From an uncultured archaeon (GTDB lineage Archaea > Iainarchaeota > Iainarchaeia > Iainarchaeales > 1-14-0-10-31-34): DNA of 64,000 bases. The stretch is from assembly GCA_964608675.1 (NCBI GenBank), contig CAZSOZ010000001.1, positions 96,001 to 160,000 of the forward strand, written 5' to 3'. The notes beneath the pieces are model-generated. The model saw only the letters and a list, made by a program, of their open reading frames with translations. It was not told the origin of the DNA and did no database searches. The translations under genes and the position numbers were made by a program. Within the stretch, counting starts at the first letter, position 1, and each line of letters begins with the position of its first letter. Shown here one piece after another: positions 56,278 through 61,415 of the stretch.

Positions 56278-56433
56278 GCGACCGTGGTTTAGTGGTAGAA
56301 TAGGAGCTTGCCAAAAACCTTTTTTAGAAAAAAAGCTTTACCAAAAAAGGTTTTCACTTCGTGAAAACTTATTTTTTAATTAGTAAAGGTTTGTTATTAG
56401 CTTCGGACTCGGGTTCAATTCCCGGCGGTCGCA
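56278..56433 (+). tRNA. tRNA-Gly(GCC) with an 85-nt intron at 37/38 (56314-56398)
   Basis: Exons join to give GGAGC-TT-GCC-AA-GCTTC; GCGACCG/CGGTCGC acceptor stem; intron closed by AAACCTTT/AAAGGTTT next to a relaxed bulge-helix-bulge. Confidence 0.92.
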
Positions 56434-56653: not shown

Positions 56654-56724
56654 GCGTCCATAGTCTAGTGGTATGACGCGAGCCTTCCAAGCTCGATGTC
56701 CGGGTTCGATTCCCGGTGGGCGCA
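56654..56724 (+). tRNA. tRNA-Gly(TCC)
   Basis: GCGTCCA/TGGGCGC acceptor stem, CGAGC-CT-TCC-AA-GCTCG, TTCGATT T-loop. Confidence 0.95.
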
Positions 56725-56758
56725 CTTTTTATTTTCTTTTTAATCTAATTTTAATGAA

Positions 56759-57637
56759 ATGAAAAAGAAAAACAAAAACCTAATTAAAGAAATTGCTTTA
56801 GAGAGAATGTACAGATTAATGGATTTAGCAATTGAAGAATGGAAAAAACACTCTGAAAGAAGCTTGGATTACTTAAAGTTAATGAAAAAAATAGGTTCAA
56901 GGAACAAAGTAAGAATTCCAATTGAGTTAAAGGAATTATACTGCAAGAAATGCATGAGTTTGTTGCTGGAAGGAAAAGACAAGGAAATCAGAGTCAAAAA
57001 CAAGAAAATTTTGATTAAATGCAAAAAATGCGGAAAAATCAAAGAAATTAAAGGAAAACAAAAAAAAGAAAAAATTGTTTTAGGAATTACAGGAAGAATT
57101 GGAACAGGAAAAACAACTGTATTAAATGAATTAAAAAAAAAAGGCTTCAAAACACTTAATGCAGACAAAATAGCAAAAAAAGAATTAGAAAAAAAAAGAG
57201 AAAAAATAAAAGAAAAATTTGGACAAGAAGTTGTTGAAAAAAAAGGAGTCCAACACAAAAAACTGGCTAAACTGGTTTTCAACAACAAAAAAAAATTAAA
57301 AGAATTAAACGAATTAATTCATCCGCTTGTAAGAAAAAAAATTGAAGAAGAACTAAAAGGAAGAAAATTTGTTGCAGTGGAAATTCCTTTGCTGTTTGAA
57401 ACAAGAATGCAAAACTTATGCGACAAGGTTTTGGTTGTGACAGCAAAAAAAGAAAAAATAATTCAAAGAAACAAAAAAATGAACAAAAAAGAAATAGAAA
57501 AAAGAATGAAAAATCAAATGAATTCAAAAGAAAAAAAAAGGAAAGCAGATTTTGTGCTGGAAAACAACGGAAATTTAAAGGAATTGCAGGAAAAAATAAA
57601 TGAATTAATAAAAAAAATTGAAAATGAATTAAAATAA
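56759..57637 (+). CDS. coaE: Fusion: RNase P subunit Rpp21 (N-terminal) + dephospho-CoA kinase (C-terminal)
   Basis: IALERMYRL...YCKKC...KCKKCG (Rpp21), then GITGRIGTGKTT, L..LVF....L..LN.LIHP.V, EIPLLFE, ADFVLENNG (CoaE). Confidence 0.85.
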   Translation: MKKKNKNLIKEIALERMYRLMDLAIEEWKKHSERSLDYLKLMKKIGSRNKVRIPIELKELYCKKCMSLLLEGKDKEIRVKNKKILIKCKKCGKIKEIKGKQKKEKIVLGITGRIGTGKTTVLNELKKKGFKTLNADKIAKKELEKKREKIKEKFGQEVVEKKGVQHKKLAKLVFNNKKKLKELNELIHPLVRKKIEEELKGRKFVAVEIPLLFETRMQNLCDKVLVVTAKKEKIIQRNKKMNKKEIEKRMKNQMNSKEKKRKADFVLENNGNLKELQEKINELIKKIENELK

Positions 57638-57684
57638 AAAACTTAAAGGAGTTCAAACAAAAAATAAATGAAAAAGGTTATTTT

Positions 57685-58161
57685 ATGAAAACAGGAGTTT
57701 ATGCAGGAAGCTTTGACCCAATCACTTTTGGACATATAGACATAATTGAACGGGCTGAAAAATTATTTGATGAAATCATTCTGCTGGTAGCAGAAAACAA
57801 AAAAAAACAAGCATTGTTTTCTCTTTCAGAAAGAAAAGAAATGCTTGAAGAACTATTTAAAGAAAAAAAACACATTAAAGTAGAAGTTTTAAGCGGACTG
57901 CTTGCAGAATACATGAAAGAAAAAAAACTGCATTTCATTATAAGAGGATTAAGAGCAATAAGCGATTTTGATTATGAATTCCAGCATTCAACAATAAACA
58001 AAGAACTAAACAAAGAAATCGAAACAGTTTTTTTGATGACCGACAGAAAATACTTTTATTTAAGTTCAGGCATGGTCAAAGAAATAATCAAACTAAAAGG
58101 AAACACAAAACAATTCATGCCAAAAATAATTGAAAGAAAATTAAAAGAAAAACTTAAATAA
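57685..58161 (+). CDS. coaD: Phosphopantetheine adenylyltransferase, bacterial-type
   Basis: YAGSFDPITFGHIDIIER, IRGLRAISDFDYE, YLSS..VKE. Confidence 0.95.
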   Translation: MKTGVYAGSFDPITFGHIDIIERAEKLFDEIILLVAENKKKQALFSLSERKEMLEELFKEKKHIKVEVLSGLLAEYMKEKKLHFIIRGLRAISDFDYEFQHSTINKELNKEIETVFLMTDRKYFYLSSGMVKEIIKLKGNTKQFMPKIIERKLKEKLK

Positions 58162-58248
58162 AACCTGATTTTAAAAAAAAAACGAAAAATATATATACCT
58201 CTAAAAAGATTATTAGATTATTCTTTAATAAAAGAGGTGAAAAAAAAA

Positions 58249-58533
58249 ATGAAAAAAACAATAATAACAATCCTCATAATAAGCATAATAACCCTAACAG
58301 GCTGCACAGAAACAGGAAAAGCAATAAACACCGAAGACACAACAACCCTAGAACCCGACCAACCAACAAACGCATCAGCAACAGCAAAATGCCTCAACGG
58401 CACAACAGTAACCTGCACAGGAACTGCCTGCTATGCAAAAGATGCGTCCCAGAACGATGATGGAACATTTACAGACGGGCTCTGCGGGTGTGGTCTCGAG
58501 CAAACTAAATGCCCGACTCCAGTAGCAAAATAA
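58249..58533 (+). CDS. Small Cys-rich lipoprotein
   Basis: GAGGTGA RBS, lipobox LTGC, six Cys in the C-terminal domain. Confidence 0.75.
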   Translation: MKKTIITILIISIITLTGCTETGKAINTEDTTTLEPDQPTNASATAKCLNGTTVTCTGTACYAKDASQNDDGTFTDGLCGCGLEQTKCPTPVAK

Positions 58534-58634
58534 AAAAAGAAAAAATATCCAACAAAAAAGAGGAAAAAAACTTTAACCCTCTTTTCCTTTTTCTTTTCAA
58601 TAACATTAAATTACTTTTTTCTTATAATTGTTGA

Positions 58635-59081
58635 ATGCCTGCAATAAAAAATAAAACCAAAAAAAGAAAAAACATTTCATTTGGAAAAAAAGTTCTTTCA
58701 AACAGAATGGCCAAAACAAACAGACAAAAAAATATTCCAACAATTGTTTTTTGCTGCGAGGCAGGAGGCTCAAGCGGAGTAATAGCAAGGTCTCTTCAAA
58801 GGGAACTGGAAAAAAAAGGAATCAAAAAGTTTAGAATAAAAAATGCAGGGCTTTACAATGAATCAGCAGACAGAATTTTAAGCCAAGCTGATTTGGTTGT
58901 TTCGCCTGTTTCACTTAAGGCGCTAATGAAAAATAAAAGCATACCTGAAAAAATAAAAAAAATTTTAAGAAAAAAAAAGTTAATAGAAGAAAATATTTCT
59001 GTGCTGACTGACACAGGAAAAATAAACCGGCAGTTCCTTGAAAAAGCAGAGAAAAAGCTGAAGGAAAAAAACCTGAATTGA
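58635..59081 (+). CDS. PTS EIIB / LMW-phosphatase-like fold protein
   Basis: IVFCCEAGGSSG P-loop-like motif, ADLVVS. Confidence 0.5.
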   Translation: MPAIKNKTKKRKNISFGKKVLSNRMAKTNRQKNIPTIVFCCEAGGSSGVIARSLQRELEKKGIKKFRIKNAGLYNESADRILSQADLVVSPVSLKALMKNKSIPEKIKKILRKKKLIEENISVLTDTGKINRQFLEKAEKKLKEKNLN

Positions 59082-59202
59082 TGACCGGAAGATAAGTATA
59101 AAAAGGTTGTTTTTGATAAAATAATAAGAGAAAAAAACCTCAAATTCTCTAATACTTAATATTACGCTTTTTTGTGTTATTTAAGACATGGAGGCAGTTT
59201 TA

Positions 59203-59763
59203 ATGGTTTCAGTGTACGATGTGCCGGGAACAGAATTAATTAAAGAAATAGCAAAAGAATTAAAAGAAAACAAAAACATAATTCAGCCTGAATACGTGGA
59301 TTACGTTAAAACAGGAGCCCACAAAGAAAGAGCTCCACAAGAAGACGGCTGGTATTATACAAGAATGGCTTCAATTCTAAGAAGAATTTTTTTAGACGGA
59401 CCGATTGGAACAGAATCCCTAAGAACATATTATGGAGGCAAAAAAAACAGAGGAGTAAGACCAAACAAAAAAATTAAAGCAGGAGGAAAAATAATAAGAG
59501 ACTGCCTGCAGGCGTTAGAAAAAGAAGGCTTAATAAAAAAAGAAAAAAAAGGAAGAATTACAACAAGCAAAGGAACTGCTTTCTTAAAACAAGCTTCAAA
59601 AAAAACAGAAGAAAACCTTAAAACAAACCCAAAAACAAGAAAAAAAAGAAATTTAACTCTAGCAAAAGAAAAAGGTTCACAAGAACCAAAAGAAAAAAAG
59701 AAAAAAGAAAAGAAAGGGAAAGAAAATGAACCCAGAGGAGATAAAGCAAAAAAAAATAAATGA
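59203..59763 (+). CDS. rps19e: 30S ribosomal protein S19e
   Basis: VKTGAHKERAP..WYY.R.ASILR, YGG.K.RG; Lys-rich tail. Confidence 0.95.
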   Translation: MVSVYDVPGTELIKEIAKELKENKNIIQPEYVDYVKTGAHKERAPQEDGWYYTRMASILRRIFLDGPIGTESLRTYYGGKKNRGVRPNKKIKAGGKIIRDCLQALEKEGLIKKEKKGRITTSKGTAFLKQASKKTEENLKTNPKTRKKRNLTLAKEKGSQEPKEKKKKEKKGKENEPRGDKAKKNK

Positions 59764-60043
59764 ATTAAAAGAAAAATATTCGCATCAAATGGAAGAACAA
59801 AACAGGAGGACCGACTTAGAAAACCAGATTGAATCTGCATTAAAGCTTGTTTTAACAGAAAACGCAAAAACAAGGCTTTATAATGTAAAACTGGTTAACC
59901 GGGAACTATATTTAAAAACAGCACAAAATCTTATTTATTTATATAAATCAGGTCAAATAAACGAAAAAATCGGAGACATCCAGCTGAAAAACCTGCTTGA
60001 AAAACTTTCTGCAAAAAGAGAAATAAATATTAAGAGAAAATAA
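59726..60043 (+). CDS. PDCD5-like DNA-binding protein
   Basis: LT..AK.RL.NVKLV, G.I...I....LK.LL, I.IKRK; usual position after rps19e. Confidence 0.88.
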   Translation: MNPEEIKQKKINELKEKYSHQMEEQNRRTDLENQIESALKLVLTENAKTRLYNVKLVNRELYLKTAQNLIYLYKSGQINEKIGDIQLKNLLEKLSAKREINIKRK

Positions 60044-60055
60044 AGGTGAAGAAAA

Positions 60056-60244
60056 ATGGCAAGACACAAAAAAAAAGAAAAAAAAGATTTTCTGATTTCT
60101 GAAAGAAAAAAAATAGGAGCAGGAATCAGCAACGCCCCAGTATGGATTGTCCAAAAAAAAGGAGAAAGAATCTGGAACACCAAACAAAAAAGGCACTGGA
60201 AAAACGTTGATTTAGGAAAATTATACAAAAAAAAGAAAGAATAA
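60056..60244 (+). CDS. rpl39e: 50S ribosomal protein L39e
   Basis: APVWIVQK...KRHW; synteny. Confidence 0.82.
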   Translation: MARHKKKEKKDFLISERKKIGAGISNAPVWIVQKKGERIWNTKQKRHWKNVDLGKLYKKKKE

Positions 60245-60257
60245 AAGGTGAAATTAA

Positions 60258-60746
60258 ATGGCAACAGATGTTTATACAATTCCTTTGAAAAAAACAATAA
60301 ACAATAAACCAAGAAGAGGGAGAGCAAAAAAAGCCATAAGAGCTGTAAAAAACTTTTTAAAAAAACACAGAAGATTAAATGAAGAAAATATTGCTGTTTC
60401 AAAAGAAGTAAATGAAAAAATATGGGAAAACGGAATGCAGGGAATACCCCGAAAAATTGAAGTTCAATTAAAAGAAATAGAAGGAAAAACTTTTGTTTTT
60501 CTTAAAGAAGGAAAAGAATTAAAGGAAAAAGAAAAAGAAATAAAAGAAAAAAAGAAAGAAGAAAAAAAAGCAAAAGAAGAAAAAGAAAAGCAAACTGAAG
60601 AAGAAAAAAAAGCAAAAGAAGAAAAAGAAAAGCAAACTGAAGAAGAAAAAAAAGCAGAAGAAGAAAAAAAAAGAAAATTAGAAGAAAAAAGGCAGAAAGA
60701 AAAAGACGCACAAAAAATTGAAATAAAAAGAAAAACAAAAGAGTAA
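60258..60746 (+). CDS. rpl31e: 50S ribosomal protein L31e with K/E-rich extension
   Basis: YTIPL, RAKKAI..VK.FL.KH, VNE.IW..G...PRKI.V. Confidence 0.92.
   Translation: MATDVYTIPLKKTINNKPRRGRAKKAIRAVKNFLKKHRRLNEENIAVSKEVNEKIWENGMQGIPRKIEVQLKEIEGKTFVFLKEGKELKEKEKEIKEKKKEEKKAKEEKEKQTEEEKKAKEEKEKQTEEEKKAEEEKKRKLEEKRQKEKDAQKIEIKRKTKE
60558..60656 (+). repeat. 42-nt tandem repeat (about 2.4 copies) within the rpl31e tail
   Basis: 60558-60599 identical to 60600-60641; encodes EEKKAKEEKEKQTE. Confidence 0.9.
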
Positions 60747-60752
60747 AATAAA

Positions 60753-61415
60753 ATGAGAATAGAAAAAAGCCAGCTTAAAGGAAGCCCTTTTATAGGAGTA
60801 TTTTGCTCTATTACAGAAGAACACGCTTTGCTTCCAATTTACATGGAAAAAAAAGAAGTAAAAAAAATAGAAGAATTCTTTGAAGTAAAAACCATTCAAA
60901 CAAGCATTGCAGGAAGCTCATTAATTGGAAGCATGGTAAAAGGAAACAGTACCGGCTTTATTGTTCCTGAAAACGCAAAAGAAAAAGAAATAAAATTACT
61001 GGAACAAAACGGAATAAAAACCAAAAAAATTAAAGGATTGACTGCTTTAGGAAACCTCATTGCATTAAATGACTTTGGAGGAATAGCAAGCCCTTTAATT
61101 TCAAAAAAAAATTTTGAAGAAATAAAAAAATTTTTTGGAATTCCCTTAAAACAAAAGACTATAGCAACCAGCGAAGTAGCAGGCTCCTGCATGGTTGCAA
61201 CCAACAAAGGATTCATACTGCACCCTGAAACAAATGAAAAAGAATTAAAAGAAATTGAATCAATACTTAAAGTGCAGGGAACACCAACAACAGCAAATTA
61301 TGGAGACCCTTTTGTTGCAAACGATGTTCTTGCAAACTCAAAAGGAGCTTTAATAGGAGAATACACTTCAAATGCAGAAATGTTAATGATAGATGAAGGA
61401 TTAAAAGGAGATTAA
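60753..61415 (+). CDS. eif6: Translation initiation factor 6
   Basis: [14 protein letters not shown]....GNS.G, GNLI..ND.G, VGS-like/ATNKG..HP, TAN.G. Confidence 0.94.

Follow-up and report, generated by a model that had tools for sequence, protein, structure and literature searches.

Does an archaeal RNase P subunit share one polypeptide with an enzyme of coenzyme A synthesis and, if so, does the joining carry a function of its own? The question is raised by an open reading frame in a 64,000-nucleotide stretch of DNA from an uncultured archaeon of the Iainarchaeota (contig CAZSOZ010000001.1, positions 96,001 to 160,000; hereafter the window), which the initial annotation described as an in-frame fusion of the RNase P subunit Rpp21 with a bacterial-type dephospho-CoA kinase, CoaE. 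The fusion proved real. It is probably a genuine family-level fusion producing one bifunctional polypeptide that serves as the sole Rpp21 and the sole dephospho-CoA kinase (DPCK) of its host, with the two activities mechanistically independent. Neither an Rpp21-CoaE architecture nor any natural fusion of an RNase P protein subunit with a metabolic enzyme was found in print, and the words 'fusion', 'fused' and 'kinase' are absent from the main text of a survey of archaeal RNase P proteins (PMC4919917). Rpp21-CoaE is a new domain architecture.

One open reading frame encodes Rpp21 and CoaE

The fusion gene and its parts occupy the following positions of the window:

56759..57637, + strand: rpp21::coaE fusion open reading frame, 292 amino acids, ATG start, stop codon within the coordinates
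56759..57031, + strand: Rpp21 (Rpr2) domain, residues 1-91, PF04032; N-terminal helices (residues 3-49) followed by a four-cysteine zinc ribbon
57032..57076, + strand: junction, residues 92-106 (GKIKEIKGKQKKEKI), lysine-rich, of native Rpp21 tail length, containing an A8 run
57077..57634, + strand: CoaE (dephospho-CoA kinase) domain, residues 107-292, from TIGR00152, profile matches to DPCKs of the Protein Data Bank (PDB) and Foldseek

The N-terminal part matches the Pfam family Rpr2 (PF04032) over residues 16-92 with 46.9 bits (gathering cut-off 29.3), covering positions 1-90 of the 90-position model, and matches the PDB profile of 6k0a chain G with an E value of 1.9e-17. Both expected CxxC pairs are present, C62/C65 (56942, 56951) and C88/C91 (57020, 57029), and none of the four cysteines varies among the 18 fused sequences. 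The NCBIfam Rpp21 equivalog NF003045 has a cut-off of 162 bits, below which fall the whole fusion (49.7), the Rpp21 domain alone (53.9) and all five stand-alone Rpp21 proteins scored from the same order (45.4-82.4 bits); NF003045 is a naming threshold and does not separate Rpp21 members in this lineage.

The C-terminal part matches PF01121 over residues 107-275 with 139.7 bits (cut-off 27) and the dephospho-CoA kinase equivalog TIGR00152 with 157.7 bits (cut-off 65.55) over model positions 1-187 of 188. Profile matches to DPCKs in the PDB reach E values down to 3e-38, against only 4.2e-6 for 3h0k. The Walker A P-loop, GRIGTGKT, is intact at residues 112-119 (57092-57115), as had been claimed. 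In residue alignments, Asp136 (codon 57164-57166) corresponds to the second Asp of 'DAD' in 1jjv and to the matching Asp in 1uf9, 2grj, 4ttp and 2if2; this conserved Asp after strand 2, part of the DAD motif in solved DPCKs, has a catalytic role. By sequence, both domains of the fusion are complete.

Distribution of the fusion

A search for the same architecture in other genomes found it unbroken in eight of the nine species genomes of the window's family, the window's own genome included, and in four genera. The orthologues in the seven further family genomes are full length and share 45-72% identity with the fusion; in the ninth genome (G001, 81% complete), neither half was found with the fusion query. 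The clade is one family of 'Candidatus Iainarchaeum'-type DPANN archaea, in which the fusion appears to be fixed. It was found in none of the 193 other genomes in a 201-genome sample of the phylum. Among 1.84 billion representative proteins, only four clusters at 50% identity have the fusion architecture, and PF04032 and PF01121 occur together in 18 cluster representatives (ncbi, jgi, ena and logan sources). Public records name the fused proteins only 'dephospho-CoA kinase'; automatic annotation thereby hides the sole Rpp21, and the clade would seem to be without one.

Long open frames in G134, G086, G026 and G020 were considered as other CoaE fusions and rejected as ordinary coaE genes in which a Met immediately precedes strand 1. 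The apparent long matches at L056 and L062 are stand-alone rpp21 genes.

Gene content of the host genome

The host genome (94% complete) contains one Rpr2 match, scoring 50.7 bits in the genome-wide search, and one CoaE match, both of which are the fusion gene; a check for a second rpp21 found none. The other components of an RNA-based RNase P are present: an RNase P RNA at G000:C2:25148-25472 (RF00373, 101.3 bits, model positions 1-288, including the S-domain), Rpp29 (PF01868, 61.4 bits), Pop5 (PF01900, 68.7 bits) and Rpp30 (PF01876, 47.2 bits).

Most archaea use the TK1697/DUF359 kinase, unrelated to bacterial CoaE, according to PMC6650551. The host genome has no match to DUF359, and PF01121 is found in ten of ten bacterial but none of four archaeal control genomes; the kinase is therefore called bacterial-type. 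A CoaB domain is also without a match in the host genome, and the missing CoaB and archaeal DPCK together suggest that a late CoA precursor may be salvaged. Besides coaD, two further PF01467 proteins are encoded, resembling NadD and a generic cytidylyltransferase.

Gene neighbourhood and origin of the fusion

Around the fusion gene, the window holds the following features:

56654..56725, + strand: tRNA-Gly(UCC), found by ARAGORN; RF00005, 70.4 bits; ends 33 bases before the fusion ATG
57685..58161, + strand: coaD, bacterial-type phosphopantetheine adenylyltransferase, 158 amino acids; TIGR01510, 190.9 bits against 103.3
58237..59081, + strand: two extra genes in the coaD-rps19e interval, a 98-residue Cys-rich protein without a Pfam family and a 148-residue PTS_IIB-like protein
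59188..61415, + strand: array of rps19e, a dsDNA-binding protein (PF01984), rpl39e, rpl31e and eIF6, the probable ancestral neighbours of rpp21 on its 3' side; Pfam S19e and dsDNA_bind

The coaD gene was correctly placed after the fusion by the initial annotation; it starts 47 bases 3' of it, and coaD adjoins the fusion in six of the seven other fused loci (seven of eight with the window). The two extra genes are seen in the window's genome only among the fused loci examined (tblastn negative in L030-L036). The names rpl39e, rpl31e and eIF6 derive from reading the open reading frames, and tblastn supports these genes as conserved neighbours only. With that reading, tblastn finds the array from S19e to eIF6 kept in all seven fused loci and in 9 of 13 stand-alone rpp21 loci.

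In 9 of 13 loci from other families, an rpp21 that stands alone precedes this array, with nothing between them or with a variable gene, which is yhbY in two loci. Archaeal RPP21 has been described directly before yhbY, with ribosomal protein genes next in some genomes (PMC4919917). In the host genome yhbY was not found by tblastn with the G022 protein as query (best E value 3.1). In other families of the same order, coaE stands alone at a different site of the genome, and coaD follows it in 9 of 11 loci. Because the related families have stand-alone rpp21 before rps19e and the cassette elsewhere, we infer that the resident bacterial-type coaE-coaD cassette of the order was inserted right after rpp21 and ahead of the rps19e operon, in the slot where some relatives carry yhbY. 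Loss of the rpp21 stop and of the coaE start would then have let the native Lys-rich tail of Rpp21 run into the first β-strand of CoaE. The earlier suggestion that a bacterial coaE-coaD cassette landed on the 3' end of rpp21 thus holds for the bacterial type and for the position, but the event does not resemble a fresh landing from a bacterium, as the cassette is resident and unfused elsewhere in the order.

A quick IQ-TREE phylogeny covered 98 CoaE sequences: 16 fused domains, 11 stand-alone CoaEs of the order and 71 other matches of at most 260 residues (four longer matches were left out, as were P0010, P0015 and P0017). The fused domains group together in a single clade with an SH-aLRT support of 94. 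The stand-alone CoaEs of the order are scattered among unlabelled sequences, and 41 of the 95 inner branches are open. The tree names no donor or direction, and it does not discriminate between an origin from the resident cassette and a second transfer.

Structure models and pairing with Rpp29

The AlphaFold2 model of the fusion has a pLDDT of 84.5 and a pTM of 0.60, and does not define how the two domains are placed relative to each other. Foldseek aligns the Rpp21 part of the model with 2zae chain B (TM score 0.83, RMSD 1.8 over 95 columns), 1x0t (0.82) and 6k0a chain G (0.69), and the CoaE part with 2grj chain A (TM score 0.86), 4ttp (0.81) and 1uf9 chain A (0.78).

The predicted complex of the fusion with Rpp29 scored 0.83 in three runs, against 0.12 for the best control, a score that expresses likeness to solved complexes rather than binding. 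Of solved complexes, 116 of 157 reach the mark applied to it, as do 2 of 215 mismatched pairs; these counts are approximate, since our own alignments were used. The runs had at least 92% of contacts in common, and the partner pLDDT was 85 or higher. The predicted interface comprises fusion residues 5-57 and includes no CoaE residue. Like complexes have been solved (2zae, 2ki7 and 6k0a), and the high score of the Rpp29 model may thus reflect the predictor's memory of them.

Function of the fusion protein

The open reading frame predicts one full-length product. Its N-terminal 91 residues would be the only Rpp21 of the cell, with helices that pair with Rpp29 and serve the RNA-based RNase P, and its C-terminal 186 residues the only dephospho-CoA kinase, converting dephospho-CoA, supplied by the product of the adjacent coaD, to CoA. 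Most likely, the fusion joins two unrelated housekeeping jobs, and the two activities are mechanistically independent. Since each half is the only copy, neither could be lost or expressed alone, and the fusion would be retained for that reason. The present evidence favours this reading, that of a neutral fusion locked in place. What the sequences show directly is the architecture and its conservation, the single-copy status, the intact motifs, purifying selection and synteny; that both halves are active, that they work independently and how the fusion came about are inferred.

A holoenzyme of RNase P that carries an active kinase and makes use of the pairing, either because RNase P responds to nucleotide or CoA state sensed by the kinase domain or because the conserved A-run of the junction sets the ratio of free Rpp21 to Rpp21-kinase, is unlikely. 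Should the two halves prove to be coupled in function, tRNA processing would be tied to cofactor metabolism in a new way. On the coupling idea, the kinase has a reason to be on RNase P: it might make tRNA maturation depend on the CoA or ATP status of the cell, or modify a nucleotide linked to RNA, for instance a dephospho-CoA cap. Four genera have retained the fusion with a short linker of nearly constant length (13-15 residues), the CoaE domain is left free by the predicted Rpp29 interface, and G006 (99% complete) retains the fusion although no TIGR01510 coaD was found there, only one generic cytidylyltransferase, so that by gene content its kinase is without the usual upstream pathway partner. 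These points are consistent with coupling, but retention is equally accounted for by the single-copy status of each half. The fusion was seen in one family only, whereas families of the same order use separate, unlinked genes, and the proximity of coaD at nearly all fused loci points to ordinary CoA synthesis. CoaE also has unrelated fusion partners elsewhere, namely Fpg (P0034), PPAT (2f6r) and the longer form 6n39. In dephospho-CoA-capped RNA, the 3'-OH of the adenosine, which is the target of CoaE, is occupied by the first phosphodiester bond, so the cap adenosine offers no free 3'-OH. The link between a dephospho-CoA cap and RNase P that had been put forward as a speculative alternative found no support in this analysis and is chemically awkward. 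Coupling in any of these forms is considered improbable.

The junction and the number of products

Between the second CxxC pair and the P-loop of the window's gene there is no stop codon and no in-frame ATG, as had been noted, nor an in-frame GTG or TTG. The junction spacing is identical in seven fused loci and amounts to 13 residues in G007; stand-alone Rpp21 proteins of related families have tails of 8-20 residues after the last Cys. The junction nucleotides vary among the fused genomes, and the frame is preserved in all of them.

The A8 homopolymer of the window's junction (57060-57067) is relevant to a second alternative, in which the gene additionally gives rise to an unfused Rpp21 of native size, an unfused CoaE, or both, through slippage on the A-run, internal initiation or proteolysis. 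Slippery A-runs generate two products in bacterial dnaX and in an archaeal fucosidase gene. An A7-A8 run is found at the junction in seven of the eight fused genes, including two GC-richer genes that contain no more than 2 and 4 runs of this kind altogether, and removal of one A at this run brings a stop after 3-6 codons in six of seven genes, giving a product of 104-108 residues. The V107 codon is GTG in three of seven fused loci, and in G007 the codon just ahead of that position is an in-frame TTG. Against these observations, the run is expected anyway because the sequence is Lys-rich: when synonymous codons were resampled with each gene's own usage, a run of at least seven A occurred at the junction with probabilities of 0.76, 0.94, 0.83, 0.72, 0.66 and 0.32 in the six genes covered (G004 and G007 are without a figure). 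Selection for the junction A-run was accordingly rejected, its frequency being no higher than lysine codons yield. The G007 junction has no A7-A8 run, the window's gene has 12 runs of at least seven A overall, which makes slippage unspecific to the junction, and no start codon at the junction is conserved. Production of a second, shorter protein is thus improbable, and the single full-length product remains the preferred reading.

Conservation of the kinase half

Could the kinase half instead be a decaying or non-catalytic passenger that is not removable without damage to rpp21? The Walker A motif of G007 reads GKN in place of GK[ST], so that catalysis there could be impaired, G006 is without coaD, and the CoaE part evolves at a higher rate, with 39-47% identity between genera where the Rpp21 part has 50-62%. 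Nonetheless, G112, G117, K118, D136, H188 and P189 are invariant across the 18 fused sequences, the TIGR00152 scores of the window's protein and of G006 (123.7 bits) are both well over the cut-off, and no second DPCK of either type was found in the host genome. Across ten within-genus pairs, dN/dS ranges from 0.05 to 0.20 in the Rpp21 part and from 0.14 to 0.39 in the CoaE part, values that are rough at a dS of 0.6-3.6. Both halves are under purifying selection, and a passenger kinase is very unlikely.

Sequence support across the junction

The initial annotation had called for an assembly indel at the junction homopolymers to be excluded and for read support at 57040-57080. A search for sequencing runs listed three DNA runs from one study and no RNA run, and the DNA runs were used as assembled Logan contigs only. 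Direct read support is thin. Run X2 comes from another sample of that study; one of its contigs, 234 bases long, is identical to 56862-57095 without any difference or gap and stops 28 bases beyond the A8 run, just short of the bridging threshold of 31 bases. From the probable source run, X1, no contig piece spans the junction (57045-57075 masked as repeat). Most of the aligned contig pieces were short A-rich chance matches with loose ends, and the 'joints' with sides of 20-27 letters that stem from them were discarded. That the two genes are joined falsely, through an indel of sequencing or assembly in the A8 run, is next to impossible: a homopolymer does lie at the junction and the contigs of the source sample were cut there by the repeat mask, but the frame is intact in seven other assemblies (different records) with differing junction nucleotides, a separate coaE would have no start codon, and the second-sample contig is identical across 56862-57095.

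Comparison with known systems

The fusion can be compared with the known forms of each of its halves. Archaeal Rpp21 (RNP4), as in P. horikoshii PH1601 (1x0t and 2zae) and M. jannaschii (6k0a chain G), shares with the fusion the two N-terminal helices and the four-Cys zinc ribbon, and the predicted contact of the fusion with Rpp29 is likewise made through the N-terminal helices. The rpp21 of related genomes likewise sits before the rps19e array. Stand-alone Rpp21 ends 8-20 residues past the last Cys, whereas the fusion adds a 186-residue C-terminal kinase domain; that Rpp21 apparently tolerates a C-terminal cargo of this size is of use for tagging and structural work on archaeal RNase P. The fusion is also a clean, datable synapomorphy of one Iainarchaeum family.

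Bacterial CoaE (T. thermophilus 1uf9, T. maritima 2grj and H. influenzae 1jjv) has in common with the kinase half the family, the fold, the P-loop, the (D)AD Asp, the HP and PLL motifs and the pairing with coaD. In contrast to the bacterial enzymes, the fused kinase lacks a separate start codon, is predicted to be made as the C-terminal half of the RNase P subunit to which it is joined, and resides in an archaeal host, which adds to the picture of DPANN archaea that run the last CoA steps with bacterial-type enzymes. TK1334, TK2192 and UPF0200/SSO1041 (3h0k) are P-loop kinases distantly like CoaE; the fusion matches true DPCKs far better and passes TIGR00152. TK1334 and TK2192, archaeal proteins homologous to the bacterial DPCK, are reported to lack this activity (PMC6650551).

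CoaE is a module of two-part polypeptides in other organisms as well. In the eukaryotic CoA synthase PPAT-DPCK (2f6r) it is likewise one module of a two-function polypeptide, with an enzyme of the CoA pathway as its partner. Mycobacterial CoaE carries an extra C-terminal domain (6n39, 415 residues) that is chaperone-like, and in Acholeplasma Fpg-CoaE (P0034) the partner is a DNA glycosylase. Unlike these three, the fusion described here joins CoaE to a subunit of a ribonucleoprotein enzyme.

Architecture of the fused gene

The rpp21::coaE fusion and its flanking features in the window are as follows.

56759..57637, + strand: rpp21::coaE fusion, one ORF of 292 aa that begins with ATG
Residues 16-92 of the fusion, + strand: Rpr2/Rpp21 domain (Pfam, 46.9 bits; cut-off 29.3)
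Residues 107-275 of the fusion, + strand: CoaE domain (Pfam, 139.7 bits; cut-off 27)
57685..58161, + strand: bacterial-type coaD, the next gene after the fusion (TIGR01510, 190.9 bits; cut-off 103.3)
Ending 33 bases upstream of the fusion ORF, + strand: tRNA-Gly(UCC), given for context
58237-59081, + strand: two extra genes between coaD and rps19e, not found in 7/7 other fused loci (tblastn)

The initial annotation described a complete Rpp21 with both CxxC pairs joined to a CoaE with an intact P-loop, and both descriptions hold. The Rpr2 match is accompanied by the zinc-ribbon cysteines C62, C65, C88 and C91, and the protein scores 157.7 bits against the NCBIfam dephospho-CoA kinase equivalog TIGR00152 (cut-off 65.55), with the Walker A motif GRIGTGKT at residues 112-119. 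The Rpp21 part falls below the NCBIfam 162-bit cut-off, as do five stand-alone Rpp21 proteins of the order. Fifteen residues (GKIKEIKGKQKKEKI) lead from the last Cys to the first kinase strand, and a scan of this junction found neither a stop codon nor ATG, GTG or TTG in frame, in agreement with the reported lack of a stop or separate ATG. The fused orthologue of G007, another genome of the family (L036 4521-5411), has a 13-residue linker with an in-frame TTG just ahead of strand 1, and its Walker A motif has GKN, not GK[ST].

Slippage on the A-run of the junction could yield two products from the gene: a run of A7-A8 occurs there in 7/8 fused genes and the +1 frame after it meets an early stop in 6/7. 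The odds of this are low, however, as codon resampling of six genes gave such a run from Lys-rich sequence alone with a probability of 0.32-0.94. The preferred reading is that the product would be one bifunctional protein, its halves working independently.

Function of the two halves

Judging from sequence and structure prediction, each half appears to be functional. A single Rpr2 match and a single CoaE match occur in the window's genome (1.2 Mb, 94% complete), each of them in the fusion gene, and thus a check for a second rpp21 found none in this genome. The other components of an RNA-based RNase P are encoded there too: an RNase P RNA (RF00373, 101.3 bits, full model covered) and the Rpp29, Pop5 and Rpp30 genes, the Rpp29 gene being flanked by SUI1 and S17 genes (neighbours named by reading ORFs, not by family search). 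Neither an archaeal DUF359-type kinase nor a CoaB (DFP) domain was found in this 94% complete genome. Of its two further cytidylyltransferase-like genes, one resembles NadD and the other a generic enzyme.

An alignment of 18 fused proteins shows no variation at the four Cys, G112, G117, K118, D136, H188 and P189, and D136 lines up with the Asp that solved kinases conserve. Compared with solved structures, the family profile matches dephospho-CoA kinases (E 3e-38) and Rpp21 chains (1.9e-17). The AlphaFold model (pLDDT 84.5, pTM 0.60) resembles both folds, with TM up to 0.86 to kinases and 0.83 to 2zae_B. Over 10 within-genus pairs, Nei-Gojobori dN/dS ranges from 0.05 to 0.20 in the Rpp21 part and from 0.14 to 0.39 in the CoaE part, values that are rough because dS is high.

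When the full fusion was modelled in complex with the Rpp29 of the same genome, the score was 0.83 in three runs vs 0.12 for the best control, with a contact agreement of at least 92%, a partner pLDDT of at least 85 and the interface confined to residues 5-57 of the fusion. Of 157 solved complexes 116 reach the mark for such predictions, as do 2 of 215 mismatched pairs; these counts hold only roughly here because our own alignments were used. Since Rpp21-Rpp29 complexes are already solved, the prediction speaks for likeness, not binding.

The Rpp21 half would act in RNase P, and the CoaE half, together with CoaD, would make CoA from a salvaged late precursor. In the available text of PMC6650551, the usual archaeal kinase is an unrelated TK1697-type enzyme that is missing from some DPANN lineages; the bacterial-type coaE-coaD pair fills this gap across the order. 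G006, a 99% complete genome of the family (L035, L096), retains the fusion directly ahead of rps19e with a kinase part of 123.7 bits; a search throughout this genome found no TIGR01510 coaD and one generic cytidylyltransferase only, and the kinase there is therefore without its usual upstream enzyme. Nothing argues for a mechanistic link between RNase P and CoA, once speculated to run through a dephospho-CoA cap, because sister families keep rpp21 and coaE apart, the adjacent coaD points to CoA synthesis, CoaE joins unrelated partners elsewhere, and such a cap has no free 3'-OH available to the kinase.

Distribution of the fusion

The same architecture was found in seven other genomes of the family. 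Among 41 related genomes searched, a full-length, stop-free fusion is present in four congeneric genomes at 66-72% identity and, at 45-48%, in three further genera of the family. Family-wide it occurs in 8/9 genomes, the window's included; in the ninth (G001, 81% complete) neither half was matched with the fusion query. An assembly indel in the A8 run (57060-57067), as initially suspected, is excluded: the frame is unbroken in the seven other genomes despite differing junction codons (GAG AAG CCG GAA AAA AAG CTG in G008), G007 has no long A-run there, and both Pfam domains occur together in 18 cluster representatives from independent sources. Direct read support is thin and comes from one 234-base Logan contig of a second sample, with 0 differences over 56862-57095, and extends to 28 bases past the A8 run, where the contig ends.

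In the other families of the order (32 genomes) the Rpp21 and CoaE parts match at separate sites, and among 201 genomes sampled evenly from the phylum, those of the window's family alone give full-length matches. In other families, four open frames of suspicious length proved to be ordinary coaE genes. A HMMER search of 1.84 billion representative proteins returned four representatives matching across both domains, after which the score falls from 213 to 138 bits; every later match begins at about residue 100. Fusion-bearing public records are labelled 'Candidatus Iainarchaeum', 'Micrarchaeota' or 'archaeon' MAGs, and the protein's sole name in them is 'dephospho-CoA kinase'. One MAG of the family, G002, carries two distinct copies (C2 and C36; L031, L053) with 66% and 68% identity to that of the window, the second on a 3.7-kb contig ending inside the gene; the bin may combine two strains, its stated contamination being 3%.

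Neighbourhood and origin

Genes for S19e, a dsDNA-binding protein, L39e, L31e and eIF6 follow the fusion in 7/7 other fused loci, with coaD between the fusion and this array in 6/7. In 9/13 loci of other families a stand-alone rpp21 precedes this array in the same orientation, and the gap is empty or holds a variable gene, which is yhbY in two loci of two related families. These loci agree with the archaeal order rpp21-yhbY followed by ribosomal protein genes described in the available text of PMC4919917. No yhbY (CRS1_YhbY) homologue was found in the window's genome by tblastn with the protein of a related genome, G022 (best E 3.1).

Stand-alone Rpp21 proteins end 8-20 residues beyond the last Cys, and the fusion linker is accordingly just the native Rpp21 tail. 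Stand-alone coaE of the order starts 1-3 residues ahead of strand 1, distant from rpp21, and is followed by coaD in 9/11 loci. The CoaE domains of the fusions group in one clade (SH-aLRT 94), the deeper branches being without resolution. On sequence comparison, the simplest history would be that the resident coaE-coaD cassette inserted behind rpp21 a single time, in the family's ancestor, and that loss of the rpp21 stop codon and coaE start codon gave the continuous frame. The proposed landing of a bacterial coaE-coaD cassette on the 3' end of rpp21 thus stands as to the type and position of the pair; the cassette itself would be one already resident in the order.

Since tblastn found the genes at 58237-59081 in no other fused locus, they are a recent gain of the window's genome at this same site, later than the fusion. 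One product is Cys-rich, 98 aa long and hydrophobic at its N-terminus, and belongs to no Pfam family; the other is a 148-aa PTS_IIB-like protein. An L31e-like ORF at 60258-60746 (+) has a long Lys/Glu-rich C-terminal extension whose translation contains an internal direct repeat (…EEKKAKEEKEKQTEEEKKA… twice); orthologues in several loci align over the first ~85 residues only. Upstream, at 56278-56433 (+), an Rfam tRNA match (45.1 bits) whose anticodon region carries 87 inserted bases, and on which ARAGORN is silent, is probably an intron-bearing tRNA.

The fusion is probably neutral, locked in place by the lack of another copy of either half. By title and abstract, the literature searched yielded no Rpp21-dephospho-CoA kinase combination and no natural Rpp21 fusion, in line with the initial statement that no described Rpp21-CoaE fusion was known to its author. 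The Rpp21 and CoaE domains are each well known; what is new is the architecture that combines them, which is confined to one family.
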